This document shows, one piece after another, positions 7,555 to 14,101 of a stretch of DNA of 64,000 nucleotides. Source of the stretch: Escherichia phage P896; sequence record OL451225.1. One strand, 5' to 3'. The position numbers and the translations under genes were made by a program. Numbering within the stretch: the stretch's first letter is position 1; each line of letters starts with the position of its first letter. The notes below the pieces were generated by a model, which was not told the DNA's origin, did not search any database, and was given only the letters and a program-made list of their open reading frames with translations.

Positions 7555-7580
7555 CGAAAAAAGGACCGAAGCCCTTTTGT
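7555..7580 (-). terminator. Intrinsic terminator after DNA ligase
   Basis: Minus-strand RNA AAAAGGGC-UUCG-GUCCUUUU (one G.U pair) followed by a U-run; abuts the ligase stop codon. Confidence 0.55.
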
Positions 7581-9121
7581 TATTTTAATCCAGTCTTTGA
7601 CCAGTCGCCAAATACATCTTCGAATGTGTCTGCATGGTCTTTATCGAAACGGAACCCTTTGATAATCGGCAGGAACAATGCAACCGTATTATCTTTACGA
7701 GTCTCGGAAGTCAACCAACCATTACATTCACAGTCGGCAATCATTCCAACCAATTCGCCTTTACGGGCTTTAACCATCAAGGCTTCACGGTCCATTTCAT
7801 GACGCTCCTCAATCGGAATAGTAACCCATTTTTTGGTTTTCTTATCTTTAACTTGAGTTGTGTCTTTAAAACCAGAACCACAGTTATTTGTAATCTTACC
7901 ACAAGAAGAACGAAGCACAACACCACCAATCTTATTCGGGTCTTTATCGTGCTCGTAATATCCAATGATTTCCATTGCGATGTCAATTACTTCTTTGAAC
8001 TTGTACAAGTTCTTTGAGCGCTTGTTTTCCCAAATCGATGCCATGTTCTTAAGGATAATACCTTCAAGACCTTCATCCACATATTTCTTATAGATAACCT
8101 TCGCTTCATCGAGATTGTTAACAACATGGTTTTCAATCAGAATCATGCGGTCAAAACCATGCAGCACCACGTTATCTGCAATCATCTTTTCCAGAACAGC
8201 AAAACGCACATCGTATTTTAACGGATTGAGTATCTTAACATCAGAATAGACTTCAATCAATGGAACATAATCCCAAACCTGGAATTTCATGCAAGAAGCT
8301 TCTGCTGCAGAAATAGTTCCTTTCAATGATTTGTTTGCCAGACCATTTGAAAAGGTTCTTGATTCCGCGAATTCTGCGAATTCTTTTGCCTTACTAAGCT
8401 CAGGCATATCGTCAAAAAGGAAGCTCAAACCATCATTCTGGGGAGCTATTTTCTGTTCATGATATACTAACTCGCCGTCAATCAAAACGCCCTCAGGATG
8501 TCTCTCACGCGCTTCACGGGTAGCTTCAATCAATTCCTTTTTAAGGAGGTCAAGCTTGAGGTATTCGTTGCCAGCTCGGGATAACAATCGAACATCATCC
8601 AACTCATCGCCACGAACTTCTGCAAAACACCGAGCGCCGTCGGCTTTCAATTGTGCAAAGGCCGGGAACTTAATGTTCTTGGCAATACCGGCTTCATCAT
8701 AGGAAGAAGCGAGCATCTGCGGTTGTTCAGGAATTAAACCTTTCCAAACCTTATTTGCAATTGATACGGATGCCCCGCATTCCAGGTCACGCATCATAAC
8801 ACGCCGCAGGACTTCAACATCTGCTTTTTTACCATCAGCAATATAGCCAGATAATTCCTCGATTGCAGCATTACCTGTTAATTTACGAGAGGCTAATGTG
8901 AATTCAATAAAGTCAAGCATATCATCGATATTCAGCATACCAAAGCTTTGAGTCGTTGTCCCAGGTTTTGGCCATTTCTTAATATAGAACTGGATGCCTT
9001 TGGAATATGTCAAACGATACACACGTTTGAGGGTTTCATTGTCAGAATACGATTCCAGAATAGCTTGTTTCTCTTTAGTAGAATCGGTTGCAGCAATTTC
9101 ATTTAAAATATCTAAAATCAT
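7580..9121 (-). CDS. 30: ATP-dependent DNA ligase gp30
   Basis: 513 aa; N-terminus and body closely resemble T4 DNA ligase (ILNEIA...KRVYRLTYS, KADGARC adenylation motif, ...FEDVFGD). Confidence 0.95.
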   Translation of the reverse strand: MILDILNEIAATDSTKEKQAILESYSDNETLKRVYRLTYSKGIQFYIKKWPKPGTTTQSFGMLNIDDMLDFIEFTLASRKLTGNAAIEELSGYIADGKKADVEVLRRVMMRDLECGASVSIANKVWKGLIPEQPQMLASSYDEAGIAKNIKFPAFAQLKADGARCFAEVRGDELDDVRLLSRAGNEYLKLDLLKKELIEATREARERHPEGVLIDGELVYHEQKIAPQNDGLSFLFDDMPELSKAKEFAEFAESRTFSNGLANKSLKGTISAAEASCMKFQVWDYVPLIEVYSDVKILNPLKYDVRFAVLEKMIADNVVLHGFDRMILIENHVVNNLDEAKVIYKKYVDEGLEGIILKNMASIWENKRSKNLYKFKEVIDIAMEIIGYYEHDKDPNKIGGVVLRSSCGKITNNCGSGFKDTTQVKDKKTKKWVTIPIEERHEMDREALMVKARKGELVGMIADCECNGWLTSETRKDNTVALFLPIIKGFRFDKDHADTFEDVFGDWSKTGLK

Positions 9122-9396
9122 TTAATATCTCTTCTGGTCATAAAGATTCTATTATAAGCTACTTCATCTTGAAGCTCATTTAAAGTCTTTTGATATGTAT
9201 TAATCCAACGTCTACCACGAGAGGTTGTTACAAAATACTCGGAGATGTAAATAAATCCTTGTTCAACACATTCCATGAATATTTTTTCATATCTAGCTTG
9301 GTTGTATAAAGGCTTTGCTCGTAAGAACTGTGTCACATTCCCGTAATCATGGGTAGAACATCTTCCGTCTGAAATATCATGAACGACAAACATCAA
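9118..9396 (-). CDS. Hypothetical protein (30.1-like position)
   Basis: 92-aa ORF translationally coupled to its neighbours. Confidence 0.5.
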   Translation of the reverse strand: MMFVVHDISDGRCSTHDYGNVTQFLRAKPLYNQARYEKIFMECVEQGFIYISEYFVTTSRGRRWINTYQKTLNELQDEVAYNRIFMTRRDIK

Positions 9397-10217
9397 TTAC
9401 CCCCTTGGCCACCGGTCGGTTGGTTGTACCAATATTCAATGCCAGTACCTACGCGTGGACCATATTGATATGGATATGCTGGATTATAACCAGGAGTCCA
9501 TGGTTGACCTGGTTGCCAGCCTTGTTGCATTTGTTGTTGAAGACGGCGAGTTTCACGAAACAGCTCTTCCAGTTTACGGAGTTCATCAGGGGTGAATTCT
9601 GGTTTGACTGGTTCATCTTTGTGTTTCAGTTTAAGCTGCCCAGCTACATCGTCCCAATTAAAAACTTTGGAAGCTGTTTTAGGAATAGCATCACGTTCAC
9701 CACGAGCCATCCAATAAACCGGAATCTCAAGGATTTCACTCGCATGGTCGCAATGGTGTGCAAGGTCATCAATATAACAAACGACATTATATTTGGTCTT
9801 CGCCTTCTGGAATAACTCTTCTTTAGAAGCTGTATGGCCGCACATCATCACTTCTTTAAATGCACCAGGGAACAAAGCATTCAGGTTGAATTGACGATTC
9901 AGACGGGCGTCAATGGAATCACCCAGAGCCGTAACAGCCACAAAATCATATTGCTCTTTGAGGTTATTAATAACCCTTAACGCATCTGCGTAAGGAGACA
10001 AATAGCGAATAAAATCTGAACAGTTATATTTCTCAATCAACTGTGCTCCCAACTCTTCATCACAATTGAACAGTTTACCAGGGGTCACAAATTTTTCATC
10101 CTGAATCATCTTAAGGATATGTTCCAGGGGTAAATTATATTTTTGGGCGAAATAAGGCAAGCCAGACTGCCATGACAAACATACGCCATCAATATCTGTT
10201 AAAATAACGGGTTTCAT
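9393..10217 (-). CDS. HAD-like (DxDG) putative nucleotidase/phosphatase with Q/P/G/Y-rich C-terminal tail
   Basis: N-terminal ILTDIDGV motif typical of HAD phosphatases and 5'(3')-deoxyribonucleotidases; C-terminal about 60 aa are low complexity (QQQMQQGWQPGQPWTPGYNPAYPYQYGP...GGQGGN). Confidence 0.55.
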   Translation of the reverse strand: MKPVILTDIDGVCLSWQSGLPYFAQKYNLPLEHILKMIQDEKFVTPGKLFNCDEELGAQLIEKYNCSDFIRYLSPYADALRVINNLKEQYDFVAVTALGDSIDARLNRQFNLNALFPGAFKEVMMCGHTASKEELFQKAKTKYNVVCYIDDLAHHCDHASEILEIPVYWMARGERDAIPKTASKVFNWDDVAGQLKLKHKDEPVKPEFTPDELRKLEELFRETRRLQQQMQQGWQPGQPWTPGYNPAYPYQYGPRVGTGIEYWYNQPTGGQGGN

Positions 10218-10699
10218 AATGCATCTCTCAATTGGTTAAGTATGTCAATAAATTCTTGTTCAGTCAATATTGTATCATGAACAGTAAGGTGACTCGCCAT
10301 CGAATGCTTTAAAACTTTGCCCTTTGTAGCTTGTAATGCGTCGCGGAATCCTTTGTTTTGGAGCGCTGCTTCAAAATAAGCATTTGTATACAACTCTTTC
10401 CATGATGTAGAGTATCTTGAAAAGGGAATTCCAAGCCAGAAAAGCGTCCCACGGTCCGCAGCTCTCGCATAAGCTCTTCCACTTTGCTGGGCGGCCAGGC
10501 CGGACATCCCAAATATACGTTTTTGTTGTTCATGATTTCTCACCTTACACCCTTGCAGGAAGCCTTCAAGACCTCCAAACTGGATGCCCTCCATAACAAA
10601 AGGCCATTTAGCAAAGTTACTTAATGCACATGATGGCCATGGGAAATTGCTTCTGATTTCTAACTCAGACATCTTTGACACTGATAATCTTGGTTGCAT
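10214..10699 (-). CDS. Hypothetical protein (30.3-like position)
   Basis: 161-aa ORF in the conserved gene-30 downstream block. Confidence 0.5.
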   Translation of the reverse strand: MQPRLSVSKMSELEIRSNFPWPSCALSNFAKWPFVMEGIQFGGLEGFLQGCKVRNHEQQKRIFGMSGLAAQQSGRAYARAADRGTLFWLGIPFSRYSTSWKELYTNAYFEAALQNKGFRDALQATKGKVLKHSMASHLTVHDTILTEQEFIDILNQLRDAL

Positions 10700-10877
10700 A
10701 CCACATACCGTGGTCCGGTAATCTGGATTTAATTGACCGCCCGCGATATGTTTTTCGCATTACAACAGTCTTAATAGCATCTTCATCACAAGCATATGGA
10801 GGTGATAAATCAATAACACGATAAGTAACTTCAACCATTTCCAAGCCAAACAGCTTTTTAAATAATTTCTTAATCAT
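10665..10877 (-). CDS. Small hypothetical protein, tandem paralog A
   Basis: 70 aa; clearly homologous to the adjacent 70-aa ORF (shared EMVEVTYRV.D.SP ... SIK.RLP..G.W ... IISVKD). Confidence 0.5.
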   Translation of the reverse strand: MIKKLFKKLFGLEMVEVTYRVIDLSPPYACDEDAIKTVVMRKTYRGRSIKSRLPDHGMWYATKIISVKDV

Positions 10878-10886
10878 GAAGGTTCC

Positions 10887-11099
10887 TTAAATATCTTTGA
10901 CGCTGATAATATATACATCAGCCCAATGACCATAACCAGGTAGACGGTCTTTAATAGATAATCCACCGTCAGATTTCAGCATTTTAATTGTTTTAGTATA
11001 TGGTTCAATATTTCGGGCCCATGGACTCACGTCAGTTACGCGATAAGTAACTTCAACCATTTCTGTTCCCAAAATTTTCTGAATCAGTTTCTTAAACAT
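10887..11099 (-). CDS. Small hypothetical protein, tandem paralog B
   Basis: 70 aa; paralog of 10665..10877. Confidence 0.5.
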   Translation of the reverse strand: MFKKLIQKILGTEMVEVTYRVTDVSPWARNIEPYTKTIKMLKSDGGLSIKDRLPGYGHWADVYIISVKDI

Positions 11100-11100
11100 A

Positions 11101-11295
11101 TTATCCTCGCCTTAAACATTTGATTACAGACAGTTCACCGTCCATGCGAACGTCTTCTGTTCCGTCAACCCACAGGACTAGATACGCTTCTTTAATTACA
11201 ATACCACCGAATTTAAAAGCAGGCAAGACCTTAGAAATCATTCCAGGAATACCTACGCCTTTTAACTGGACAGTTTGCGATAGAAATAGTTTCAT
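11101..11295 (-). CDS. Hypothetical protein
   Basis: 64-aa ORF, coupled to flanking genes. Confidence 0.4.
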   Translation of the reverse strand: MKLFLSQTVQLKGVGIPGMISKVLPAFKFGGIVIKEAYLVLWVDGTEDVRMDGELSVIKCLRRG

Positions 11296-11612
11296 TAGAA
11301 CCTCATCTGGAAACCGTGTGATTTAACATTACCGCCATTAATATCAGACGAATTGACTTCACGTGCTGCAATTGGGTCAATATCAATGTCGCGGCTAAGC
11401 TTGGTGATTGCCAGCGTATCACGTCCATTAACAGTCCTGAATTCAACTGGGCAAACTATATCCACATAGTTTTTAATGGATTCTTTAGTTGGTTCACACC
11501 CAGCAGGAACATTAGGGCCTTTTTTAGAGAAAACAACTTCACAGAAATTTTTGCGTGTATCAAAGTAAGTAGTCATAAACATAGTATTTTCCTCAAGGGG
11601 CTTTCGCCCCAT
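11295..11612 (-). CDS. Hypothetical protein
   Basis: 105-aa ORF. Confidence 0.5.
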   Translation of the reverse strand: MGRKPLEENTMFMTTYFDTRKNFCEVVFSKKGPNVPAGCEPTKESIKNYVDIVCPVEFRTVNGRDTLAITKLSRDIDIDPIAAREVNSSDINGGNVKSHGFQMRF

Positions 11613-11618
11613 TTAAGA

Positions 11619-11984
11619 TTAGATATCAAATTCATTAAGAACTACATCAAAGATTGCTTCCAGGTGTTCAGGTTTTGCTTTGTTACCCAGGATATGACGA
11701 ATCCAAGTTTTAACCAACAGCTTGCGATTAACACCATTCCAACAAGGATGAGTACCTAAATCACGCTCGCGGAAATCATCATCTAAAGCAATTTTAAAGG
11801 TTGAACCAGTCATAGTGATTGAAAGAGTGATACCATTTTCAAATCGCATATAAACGTAGTTAGGAGTCATATACTGTTCAATTTCGCACACTGAACCATT
11901 TTTATGTTTCCACAGGCAAATAACTTCAGAAGAACCTGGGATGCAGTTAGAAACATATTTGCGTTCAAAGTTGATGTAGTTCAT
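11619..11984 (-). CDS. Hypothetical protein
   Basis: 121-aa ORF preceded by the conserved leader module ...TGGAGAATAAAATG. Confidence 0.5.
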   Translation of the reverse strand: MNYINFERKYVSNCIPGSSEVICLWKHKNGSVCEIEQYMTPNYVYMRFENGITLSITMTGSTFKIALDDDFRERDLGTHPCWNGVNRKLLVKTWIRHILGNKAKPEHLEAIFDVVLNEFDI

Positions 11985-12011
11985 TTTATTCTCCAGTTGT
12001 TTTCATTTGTT

Positions 12012-12052
12012 GGTACAGGTCTATAATATCATAACCTGTACCAAAGTAAACT
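12012..12052 (-). promoter_or_regulatory. Early-type promoter with an inverted repeat flanking the -10 region
   Basis: Minus strand GTTTAC (-35-like) then GGTACAGG-N15-CCTGTACC palindrome enclosing an AT-rich -10-like segment. Confidence 0.4.
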
Positions 12053-12055
12053 GTT

Positions 12056-12424
12056 TTATGCGACTTTAATCCAATTATCTAAATTTAATTCACCCTTAGC
12101 TTTCATTTTTTCAATCAAATCATCAGCAGTAGTGCGACCATTTTGATACCATGTAACATCTTCAGAATAACCAGTTTCTTCATCTTCATAGGTCTTACAG
12201 CGAATCTTACCAAGAATCAAAGTTTTCAGTTCGTAGGTATCACCAGTAAAAAAGTTTGTTACCATAATTTTCCAGGAGAAGTCATCAGAAGGACCTTCTG
12301 GAGTCATGCAAGAAACGAATTCAAATTGTTCTTTATACAAGTGCCATTGCATTTCTTTAGTTTCAATGGCTTTGTAACCGTCGTGGTCTTTACCTTTGAT
12401 GTATGAGTTAAGATTGATTTTCAT
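12056..12424 (-). CDS. Hypothetical protein
   Basis: 122-aa ORF with TGGAGAATAAAATG leader. Confidence 0.5.
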   Translation of the reverse strand: MKINLNSYIKGKDHDGYKAIETKEMQWHLYKEQFEFVSCMTPEGPSDDFSWKIMVTNFFTGDTYELKTLILGKIRCKTYEDEETGYSEDVTWYQNGRTTADDLIEKMKAKGELNLDNWIKVA

Positions 12425-12465
12425 TTTATTCTCCAGTGTTTTATTGTGTAACTCAGTATGGAATC

Positions 12466-12497
12466 ATTATGCACTGGACCAACCCTGTTGTAAACCC
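12466..12497 (-). promoter_or_regulatory. T4 early-type promoter (GTTTAC -35, CATAAT -10)
   Basis: Minus strand GTTTACAA-N-CATAATGATTCCATACTGAG; member of a repeated promoter-leader cassette family in this window. Confidence 0.5.
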
Positions 12498-12504
12498 CTT
12501 TATG

Positions 12505-12536
12505 GAAAATAAAAAAGGGACTCCGAAGAGTCCCTG
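12505..12536 (-). terminator. Intrinsic terminator
   Basis: Minus-strand GGGACUC-UUCG-GAGUCCC hairpin followed by UUUUUUAUUUU. Confidence 0.6.
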
Positions 12537-12539
12537 AAC

Positions 12540-12701
12540 TTATGCTTTCGGCTTACCAAAGCAAGCTGCATCGGCACGCAATACCGCACGAGCACGAGCC
12601 TGAAGTTTATCAGTTACCTGATTGATTCGCTTGTTGGACGCACGCTTGTAACCAGCGCGTTTGGAGGAGCCATCAACAACTTTAACTTCTTTCTTAGCCA
12701 T
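12540..12701 (-). CDS. Small basic protein (53 aa), hypothetical
   Basis: ORF below the track's 60-aa cutoff, MAKKEVKVVDGSSKRAGYKRASNKRINQ...; Lys/Arg-rich; followed directly by a terminator. Confidence 0.4.
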   Translation of the reverse strand: MAKKEVKVVDGSSKRAGYKRASNKRINQVTDKLQARARAVLRADAACFGKPKA

Positions 12702-12996
12702 ATTAAATTCTCTTTAAAATAGAATGCAGGACTTATTGACATTGCCTGCGCAAGCCCTCGAAGGGAACATTAGGTTTCGGATATTTAACGACAGGATAAC
12801 CATAAACCTCGTCATCATACCAACCACGACTTAGACAGATAACCTTTTTCTGACGCGTGATAGTACAAAATACATTCAAGAGGTACACCACAAAATTATC
12901 GGGGTCTAAAACTATAATGATTCGCAAATCATTAATCAGATAATTCGGTGGCTCCTCGATTTTCTAGCCGCACTAAGGTAGCGAATCACCTACAGC

Positions 12997-13251
12997 TTAC
13001 TTCAGGGTTACGACAAAATGGCGAACAGCTTTACGCGCAGCAGATGCCAGCGGCTTAGCAAATTTCAGTTCATCTTTTGCTTCGAGCACTGCGCGAAGGT
13101 CGGTTTGAATCGGGTTAAGATGTTTGAAATACTGCAGAATTTCCAGTGCTTCGGCTTCAACATCAATAGATGCGCCGTAGTTTTCGTGACCGTTATTCCA
13201 TGCAGTGCGTTGCAGTTCGAGAGCGTGTTGTAATTGTTTGTTTAAAGACAT
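12997..13251 (-). CDS. rIII: rIII-like lysis-inhibition accessory protein (start probably the internal ATG)
   Basis: About 84 aa from the internal Met (MSLNKQ...WNNGHENYGASIDVEAEALEILQYF...), matching T4 rIII in size and in position between the gene-30 block and gene 31. Confidence 0.45.
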   Translation of the reverse strand: MSLNKQLQHALELQRTAWNNGHENYGASIDVEAEALEILQYFKHLNPIQTDLRAVLEAKDELKFAKPLASAARKAVRHFVVTLK

Positions 13252-13405
13252 TTTAGAAGCCTCAATATGAGGTGAATATTTGGTGGACACGTTCTTCTGA
13301 ATTTCACTTCCTTTCGGCAAGTCTCTCAGTTGTAGTCCACCGTTTAGGATTAGCTAACCCAATACACCAGCAAAGCTCTGTATGACATCAACCAATCCAT
13401 ATTAT

Positions 13406-13413
13406 TATTTATA
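13406..13413 (-). promoter_or_regulatory. T4-type late promoter (TATAAATA) upstream of the rIII-like gene
   Basis: Exact TATAAATA on the minus strand between the gene-31 stop and the rIII-like start. Confidence 0.4.
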
Positions 13414-13422
13414 ACGCTAATT

Positions 13423-13770
13423 TTACTTATAAAGACAAGGAACAGCTTTATAATGACAGGTCACAAATTTCTGCTTAACTTCTTTAGCCTGCTTAAGTCC
13501 CAGAGCAACCAGAGGATGCGGAACGTTTGCAATCTTGCCAACCGGAAGAGGAGTCAAATCACCTACTTCACAGAAACCTTCAGGAACATCCGGACCAACC
13601 GAAAATACTTCACACATCTCCGGGATTTCACCCTGATGGAGTTTTCCGATAACGATACCTGATGCCGTAGTTTCTTCATCACCAGCTTGCTTTGGCTCAG
13701 AAACCAAAATAATATATTCACCTACTGCTTTAATTGGTAATTCCATATTTAATCCATGTTGTTTGGTCAT
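13423..13770 (-). CDS. 31: Co-chaperonin gp31 (GroES analogue)
   Basis: Strong similarity to T4 gp31 (...AVGEY.ILVSEP.QAGDEE...[20 protein letters not shown]...VPHP.VALGLKQ...[16 protein letters not shown]); exact start codon uncertain. Confidence 0.85.
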
Positions 13771-13801
13771 GTATTAATAATAACACGCATTGTTTGAAGC
13801 A

Positions 13802-14101
13802 TTAAAGGACAAGCAGTGTCTCGGTCTGCAGTCCATTCACGGAAATCAATTTATTGAAACAGAATGAACGCCATTCATTAAGCTTGGTATCAAATACCCG
13901 GATATAGCTAACTGGTTCTTTATGAGCTTCTGGCCCAGGGACCTGGATTTCTTTATACGGCAGCAGGTCCAGGTCGCGAGTACAAGTCATACGGCGGATG
14001 CTACCATCTGCTTTTTCAAACAGAACTTCGTGAAAACCAACAGACAAAATAGTCTTGACTTTTTCACGGAGACGAATTGTTTCTTGTTCAGTTAAAATCA
14101 T
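13802..14101 (-). CDS. Hypothetical protein (31.1-like position)
   Basis: 99-aa ORF. Confidence 0.5.
   Translation of the reverse strand: MILTEQETIRLREKVKTILSVGFHEVLFEKADGSIRRMTCTRDLDLLPYKEIQVPGPEAHKEPVSYIRVFDTKLNEWRSFCFNKLISVNGLQTETLLVL

Follow-up and report, generated by a model that had tools for sequence, protein, structure and literature searches.

The window analysed here is a stretch of 64,000 nucleotides from Escherichia phage P896 (sequence record OL451225.1), and this study concerns two adjacent open reading frames (ORFs) of 70 amino acids each on its minus strand, referred to in the following as copy B (upstream) and copy A (downstream). Among the T4-like phages of E. coli, the window falls into the genus Gaprivervirus; over positions 10000-12000 it shares 96.8% identity with Escherichia phage CJ20 and 94-96% with SP18 and VR25. 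Both ORFs sit in the accessory cluster between the DNA ligase gene (gene 30) and rIII, where the order on the minus strand is 30.8, 30.7, 30.6, 30.5, B, A, 30.3 (adfN), 30.2, 30.1 and ligase. The evidence described below identifies the pair as an ancient tandem of single origin within the T4 gene 30.4 family, a description of identity and evolution that we regard as close to certain, and it suggests a more tentative reading of what the encoded proteins do. The features to which we refer are the following.

10887-11099, minus strand: copy B, upstream 30.4-family gene, 70 aa, ORF starting with ATG; phrog_2042, expect (E) value 1.3e-33
10878-10886, minus strand: spacer of 9 nt between the copies, GGAACCTTC on the coding strand; the junction made by the duplication
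10665-10877, minus strand: copy A, downstream divergent 30.4 paralog, 70 aa, ORF starting with ATG; phrog_2042, E 7.7e-26
10214-10672, minus strand: gene 30.3 (adfN), NADAR ADP-ribosylglycohydrolase, 152 aa; PF08010, E 7.7e-64
11101-11295, minus strand: gene 30.5 homolog, 64 aa; phrog_1690, E 1.6e-28, and synteny with SP18 gp30.5
12466-12535, minus strand: predicted intrinsic terminator (12535-12516) followed by a predicted promoter (12494-12466), from a consensus scan and direct reading of the sequence
7580-9121, minus strand: DNA ligase gene 30

A BLASTP alignment of the two products is free of gaps, with 38 of the 70 residues identical (54%), 64% positives and an E value of 9e-23. The initial annotation had called the two ORFs clear paralogs, a claim that was to fall if their identity proved to be at background level; the value obtained lies far above background, and the ORF boundaries and motifs it had given were also correct. 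At the nucleotide level the identity is 59%, conserved residues often being encoded by different codons, and a perfect match of 23 nt runs across the EMVEVTYR codons of both genes. Since the orthologs of each copy show ratios of nonsynonymous to synonymous substitution (dN/dS, omega) of about 0.1-0.3, both copies are real coding genes. Their conservation, their divergence at synonymous sites and an omega of about 0.1 rule out a reading as spurious ORFs, and the small ORFs at 10675-10824 (plus strand) and 10874-10966 (minus strand), which are opposite-strand or out-of-frame, were set aside as by-products.

The phrog_2042 profile covers residues 1-70 of both proteins, and all homologs found in a collection of 5.8 billion proteins carry Pfam PF26911 (Phage_T4_Y12I), which corresponds to T4 gene 30.4 with the database label "uncharacterized 8.1 kDa protein" (UniProt Y12I_BPT4). 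A Pfam library scan of A and B gave no match, the PF26911 model being absent from the library version used. Position agrees with profile: the pair occupies the slot between 30.5 and 30.3 of the ligase-rIII cluster, in synteny with SP18, WG01 and T4. The family is not an orphan. All family-invariant columns (K8, V17, Y19, K42, R52, G57 and W59) are retained in both copies. The near-invariant PGYGHWAD motif is complete in B and reads PDHGMWYA in A; as Y56H and A60Y alter residues that 90% or more of the remaining members retain, the alignment places A as a divergent subfamily member of the 30.4 family. T4 gp30.4 itself belongs to the same hidden Markov model (HMM) family and length class, lies in the same slot, shares the N- and C-terminal motifs and likewise ends in a stop codon that overlaps the adfN start. 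It differs in that T4 and most T-even phages have a single copy instead of two, in its identity of 44-45% to B and about 30-37% to A, and in being acidic (net charge -6), whereas A is basic (net charge +6).

That no function can be assigned to the pair, as had been noted, was borne out by the absence of any informative Pfam, PDB, PADLOC or fold match. A sequence search of the PDB with the family profile returned nothing even at E 10, PADLOC (no dedicated anti-defence library was among the searches) had no match for A, B or six neighbouring proteins, and literature searches on gp30.4, Y12I or 30.4 combined with anti-defense retrieved no functional account.

The proteins of the family have 68-72 aa and a narrow distribution. 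An exhaustive HMM search of 1.84 billion (1.84e9) cluster representatives recovered only 2 full-length clusters at 50% identity, and the 45 family clusters at the 90% level all stem from E. coli T-even phages or metagenomic relatives; the family is confined to four genera. From this we conclude that, as far as the searched collections indicate, 30.4 is an accessory early gene restricted to E. coli T-even phages, with the pair confined to a minority lineage among them. The only match of the exhaustive search that was not phage-like, P0046 (1821 aa, with 17 short stretches at profile positions 15-34), was set aside as probably a repeated short motif and not a homolog. These matches presumably reflect a VTYxVTD-like motif, as in bacterial Ig-like repeats. 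Among the T4-type alleles, P0037 carries an internal tandem duplication of 7 aa (VEFRLPC twice), P0041 and P0043-P0045 are frameshifted or truncated, and P0042 is apparently a deletion that fuses the N-terminus of 30.4 to the C-terminal part of AdfN.

To determine copy number, a check already proposed in the initial annotation, we used tblastn against 50,697 phage records. The family was found in 721 records at 734 places, which gives 13 records with two copies, and the same 13 were obtained with A as the query; they represent 12 phages, since WG01 was entered twice, and none holds three copies. Two-copy phages of the genus Gaprivervirus are CJ20, TH44, TH54, TH57 and PSD2001, while those assigned to Dhakavirus by record taxonomy include WG01, PSD2002, 04086 and dhaeg; in LHE83, ABTNLS3 and fDHCT2 the region shares about 86% identity with the window, as it does in WG01. 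The same arrangement is present on one metagenomic contig bearing the A cluster. The 13 two-copy records are the only ones with a copy of A at an identity of at least 94%; phage 212 has a hybrid.

All two-copy phages examined, from two genera, have a common junction, GATATTTAAGGA(A/G)(C/T)CTTCATGATTAA, which reads as the end of B (...GAT ATT TAA), then GGA(A/G)(C/T)CTTC and then ATG ATT AA(G/T). Because this junction is identical in all of them, the tandem pair must have arisen once. Compared with the single-copy Gapriverviruses SP18 and TH22, the window contains about 204 extra nucleotides, which start at the last codons of B and stop 24 nt short of the end of A. Between A and B, synonymous change has reached saturation (34 of 45 sites, dS undefined or >1.5, dN 0.41), which argues for an old duplication and rules out a recent tandem amplification. 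The proposed tandem duplication and divergence thus stands insofar as the genes are paralogs, but the process was neither recent nor ongoing, given the saturated dS, the single junction and the occurrence in only 13 of 721 records, nor was it symmetric. Phage counter-defence genes can also expand in copy number, as in the segmental amplification of tifA (61.2 region) that T4 reportedly underwent during evolution against toxIN (Srikant, Guegler and Laub 2022); this is similar in that extra copies of a small accessory early T-even gene are involved, plausibly under pressure from a host defence. Those repeats are recent, identical and unstable, whereas the pair in the window is ancient, 54% identical and stably inherited with a fixed junction.

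The pairs of WG01 (ORF207/ORF208) and dhaeg (dhaeg_55/56) have an identical architecture and junction, and their A counterparts are 95.7-97% identical to A of the window; they differ from the window in the loop allele of B, which is VHPQD or HTADHL instead of WARNI, and in their flanking DNA, which is only 75-87% identical. In the comparison of window positions 10300-10980 with the Dhakavirus WG01, identity is 93-100% across a block that takes in B from its middle to its 3' end, the whole of A and most of adfN, and falls to 75-85% in the flanks, a pattern that clearly points to an inter-genus recombination tract. Moreover, phage 212 (L003:1166-1378) and the metagenomic clusters P0029 and P0030 have a single hybrid gene, consisting of a B-type N-terminus and an A-type body, in which the crossover falls in the perfectly shared stretch that encodes EMVEVTYR. 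These hybrids show that homologous recombination can reduce the tandem to one gene. The shared block and the hybrids together indicate that A moves between genera by homologous recombination and that A and B can merge into one gene.

The same mosaicism raises another possible origin, namely that two divergent single-copy alleles of 30.4 that already existed were stacked by unequal recombination in the course of a co-infection, instead of one gene being duplicated. This bears on the origin alone and can be combined with the functional explanation favoured below. It would fit a locus made up of interchangeable alleles, in which A adjoins three different B alleles and 212-type hybrids document recombination in the conserved 5' stretch. 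In a neighbour-joining tree, which is weak at 70 residues, A lies on a long branch within the non-T4 clade, and its sister is P0023, a single-copy allele in the normal position. However, dS between A and P0023 is saturated as well, and P0023 may itself be a collapse product. Besides, no single-copy phage has a complete A-type gene including A's own N-terminus (MIKKLFKKLFGLE), and every single-copy A-type body has a B-type N-terminus, as collapse of the tandem predicts. We therefore consider stacking of alleles to be rather unlikely, though it deserves to be taken seriously.

The two copies have followed different courses since. Orthologs of A across the two genera differ by a dS of about 0.25 and a dN of about 0.02-0.03 (omega about 0.1), with 94-100% amino acid identity, and orthologs of B show an omega of 0.06-0.3, so that both copies are under purifying selection. 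B is by position and sequence the ortholog of the single 30.4 of most T-even phages and is 95.7% identical to the copy in TH22. Alleles at the B position keep their N-terminal third (MFKKLIQKLLGTEMVEVTYRV) and their C-terminal third (LSIEDRLPGYGHWADVEIISVKDV) but exchange residues 24-48 as a whole, three loop alleles (WARNI, VHPQD and HTADHL) being found next to A. Accordingly, the ratio of the proportions of nonsynonymous and synonymous differences (pN/pS) at the B position is about 0.85-1.33 in the middle segment versus 0.04-0.4 in the N-terminal third, whereas the middle segment of A has a pN/pS of 0.08. A in turn departs at positions that are otherwise conserved as far as T4 (I38V, D51S, Y56H and A60Y). 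These comparisons indicate an asymmetric evolution, with A nearly frozen and B hypervariable, rather than a simple symmetric divergence.

Structure prediction, another check proposed at the outset, was carried out with AlphaFold2 and the family alignment and gave the same confident fold for both copies, with a mean predicted local distance difference test (pLDDT) of 89.3 and a predicted template modelling score (pTM) of 0.73 for B, and a pLDDT of 84.5 and a pTM of 0.70 for A. In both models a helix (residues 2-10) is followed by strands 14-23 and 34-41, a short helix (49-52) and a strand (60-69), so that in each copy an amphipathic helix at the N-terminus is predicted to pack against an antiparallel sheet of three strands in a compact fold. 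The hypervariable residues map to the predicted beta1-beta2 loop, beta2 and the stretch that follows. Foldseek returned nothing significant from the PDB with either model; in BFVD its matches were limited to the WG01 paralog, a Citrobacter phage Merlin protein of 76 aa (E 2e-3) and proteins without a name. The net charge across the family ranges from -6 (T4) to +6 (A), which argues against a conserved nucleic-acid-binding or DNA-mimic surface.

The stop codon of gene 30.5 lies 1 nt ahead of the start of copy B, whose Shine-Dalgarno sequence GAGGA is located within the 3' end of 30.5. Copy B ends in ...SVKDI-TAA and has lost the overlap with adfN; its TAA and the spacer instead provide AAGGA, the Shine-Dalgarno sequence serving copy A. 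A predicted promoter, GTTTACA-N17-CATAAT (12494-12466), directly follows the strong predicted terminator after 30.9, upstream of 30.8, and would head a transcription unit from 30.8 to 30 that contains both copies. Its form is typical of T4 early promoters. The view that these are small early genes under host-interaction selection is upheld with respect to the early-type accessory unit, and such selection is plausible in the light of the pN/pS of about 0.9-1.3 in the middle third of the alleles at the B position and the presence of adfN next door. An Rfam scan of 9000-14000 detected no RNA families. Further downstream in the unit, gene 30.2 (9393-10217, minus strand, 274 aa) has an N-terminal DxDGV motif that resembles those of haloacid dehalogenase (HAD) phosphatases, and its C-terminal tail is of low complexity and rich in Q, P, G and Y (QQQMQQGWQPGQPWTPGYNPAYPYQYGPR...GGQGGN); the WG01 homolog is shorter (212 aa).

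The product of the gene directly downstream of A, AdfN, was found to be necessary and, when expressed alone, sufficient to neutralise DarTG1 (PMC11257639). The longest adfN ORF of the window begins at 10699, while the conserved ATG at 10672 (152 aa) matches the annotations of SP18, WG01 and T4. The stop codon of copy A overlaps this start by 8 nt (ATGTCTGA), a comparable overlap exists in every T-even phage examined, and the context of the adfN start, ATTATCAGTGTCAAAG-ATG, is conserved and free of a Shine-Dalgarno sequence. Because of this overlap and the missing Shine-Dalgarno sequence, translation of adfN is probably coupled to that of the ORF preceding it, copy A in the window. In two T4-like phages that are more distant, Krischvirus G2248 (L015:1341-1505, 54 aa) and Yersinia phage phiR1-RT (L018:1306-1500, 64 aa, membrane-protein-like), a small unrelated ORF that overlaps or abuts adfN likewise precedes it directly. 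A translated leader upstream of adfN may thus be a general arrangement.

Genetic data on T4 30.4 come from HIDEN-SEQ, a transposon screen of T4, in which the gene was non-essential, with 21 of 21 TA sites hit (bioRxiv 10.1101/2025.11.20.689424). According to Extended Data Table 6 of that preprint (sheets S6 and S7), insertions in T4 30.4 (L006:4759-4965) were significantly depleted in competition on DarTG1 with a log2 fold change of -1.79 (p 1e-4, adjusted p 0.014), i.e. about 3.5-fold, compared with -7.25 for adfN, while 30.6 and 30.7 were unaffected; on DarTG2, 30.4 was unaffected as well (log2 fold change -0.03). The main-text passages of the preprint drawn on here make no mention of 30.4. 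The transposon contains no terminator, which allows transcriptional read-through, and has stop codons in all three frames (bioRxiv 10.1101/2025.11.20.689424). As it stops translation and adfN has no Shine-Dalgarno sequence of its own, the depletion of 30.4 insertions is most simply explained by a loss of coupling into adfN, and the phenotype on DarTG1 is probably one of translational polarity.

The explanation that we favour is that 30.4 proteins most likely bind or inhibit, in a stoichiometric manner, a host or defence protein that is polymorphic. Binding specificity would reside in the variable loop, and the neofunctionalised paralog A would add a second, fixed one. Being small and variable in charge, the proteins are unlikely to be enzymes or conserved nucleic-acid binders, and a role as binders fits their location in a counter-defence neighbourhood. 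In addition, whichever 30.4-family gene abuts adfN would have a second role in cis by delivering ribosomes to the adfN start, which would account for the mild depletion of T4 30.4 on DarTG1. We assign a probability of roughly 0.45 to this explanation as a whole, including the evolutionary description; its mechanistic part, a small binder acting in counter-defence, is by itself a tentative proposal that falls somewhat short of even odds. A more far-reaching version, in which the family is a counter-defence specificity module whose loop tracks polymorphic immunity proteins, possibly DarT1 variants in view of the DarTG1-specific depletion in T4, with A as a second inhibitor spreading between T-even genera, is improbable as it stands.

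The neighbourhood of adfN also invites the view that 30.4 proteins belong to the anti-DarTG1 system itself, whether by assisting or regulating AdfN as a cofactor or regulator or by binding DarT1 directly, in which case the second paralog would extend the coverage to other DarT variants. AdfN, an orphan NADAR antitoxin-like enzyme (T4 gp30.3), is encoded immediately downstream with an overlap and in the same early unit, A and adfN share one recombination block of high identity, the overlap is conserved in every T-even phage examined, and T4 30.4 insertions share with adfN, though much more weakly, a depletion that the tabulated values confine to DarTG1. However, AdfN alone in trans suffices against DarTG1 (PMC11257639), and a partial depletion of the kind tabulated for the transposon insertions is what a loss of translational coupling would be expected to cause. 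AdfN is moreover an enzyme of 152 aa found widely among T4-like phages, whereas the 30.4 family is unrelated to it in sequence and has no enzyme-like features: adfN homologs occur in 1510 phage records, 30.4 in about 721, and in five further Straboviridae lineages (Krischvirus, Slopekvirus, Lazarusvirus, Tegunavirus and Citrobacter phage Ci1) a profile search around adfN detected no member of the 30.4 family, its best match having an E value of 0.11, so that 30.4 is not present wherever adfN occurs. We thus consider membership in the anti-DarTG1 system unlikely. If coupling explains the transposon data, one might go further and regard the proteins as of little importance, the ORF being a translated leader for adfN in cis and the second copy a neutral passenger. 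This would agree with an adfN start that overlaps the preceding stop and has no Shine-Dalgarno sequence, with the polarity pattern in the tabulated insertion data and with a gene that is dispensable in that screen and sometimes frameshifted. It is at odds with the strong conservation of the amino acid sequence of A (omega about 0.1 at a dS of 0.25), with terminal thirds that are conserved from T4 to Gaprivervirus, with a confidently predicted fold and with the fact that B, although uncoupled from adfN, is intact and constrained in all two-copy phages; we judge a role confined to such a leader to be quite improbable.

A different target was suggested by a weak lead in the Foldseek search of the PDB, in which YkzG (4njc_A) was the first match for B and the second for A (probability 0.63-0.66, E 0.7-1.0, template modelling (TM) score 0.45-0.51), and Bacillus subtilis RNA polymerase (RNAP) epsilon (7ckq_H) was also listed for A. 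The 30.4 proteins could accordingly be modulators that bind RNAP, akin to the Firmicute RNAP epsilon subunit YkzG or the T7 Gp2 class, with which they share a similar size and a helix-plus-three-strand architecture, and many T4 early proteins indeed target RNAP. The similarity to this class is non-significant (E about 1, TM about 0.5) and not accompanied by any sequence similarity, no solved member with a Gp2- or RNAP-epsilon (YkzG)-like fold was significantly similar in structure, and the order of elements may differ, the helix of the 30.4 family being N-terminal. We regard binding to RNAP as very improbable.

Several points weigh against the binder explanation as well. Direct functional evidence is lacking for all 30.4-family proteins, and the PDB, Foldseek, BFVD and PADLOC searches linked them to no characterised inhibitor, either in structure or in sequence. 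A pN/pS of about 1 in the middle segment would fit relaxed constraint as well as it would diversifying selection, and the counts behind it are small (25 codons). The frameshifted or truncated alleles P0041 and P0043-P0045 occur in some T4-type phages, from which it follows that the gene is readily lost, and the argument from the neighbourhood is weak, as most T4 accessory genes sit in such clusters. Finally, T4 30.4 had no phenotype on K-12 or DarTG2 in the tabulated data, and the sections of the preprint consulted here report none for its other screens (bioRxiv 10.1101/2025.11.20.689424).

The family and the two-copy arrangement were already public, in WG01 (ORF207/208) and dhaeg (dhaeg_55/56), under hypothetical annotations. 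New in this study are the identification of A as a paralog subfamily that is distinct and conserved, the asymmetric evolution of the pair, the hybrid products of its collapse and the likely coupling to adfN. As it stands, this is an evolutionary observation in an uncharacterised and narrowly distributed family and not a new kind of system, but it already identifies the tabulated DarTG1 depletion of T4 30.4 as a probable artefact of translational coupling to adfN. If the 30.4 proteins are indeed binders of host or defence targets, the locus would show how T-even phages diversify a small inhibitor, with one copy cycling loop alleles by recombination and the duplicate fixed for a second target, and one of the many unassigned T4 early genes would gain a function.

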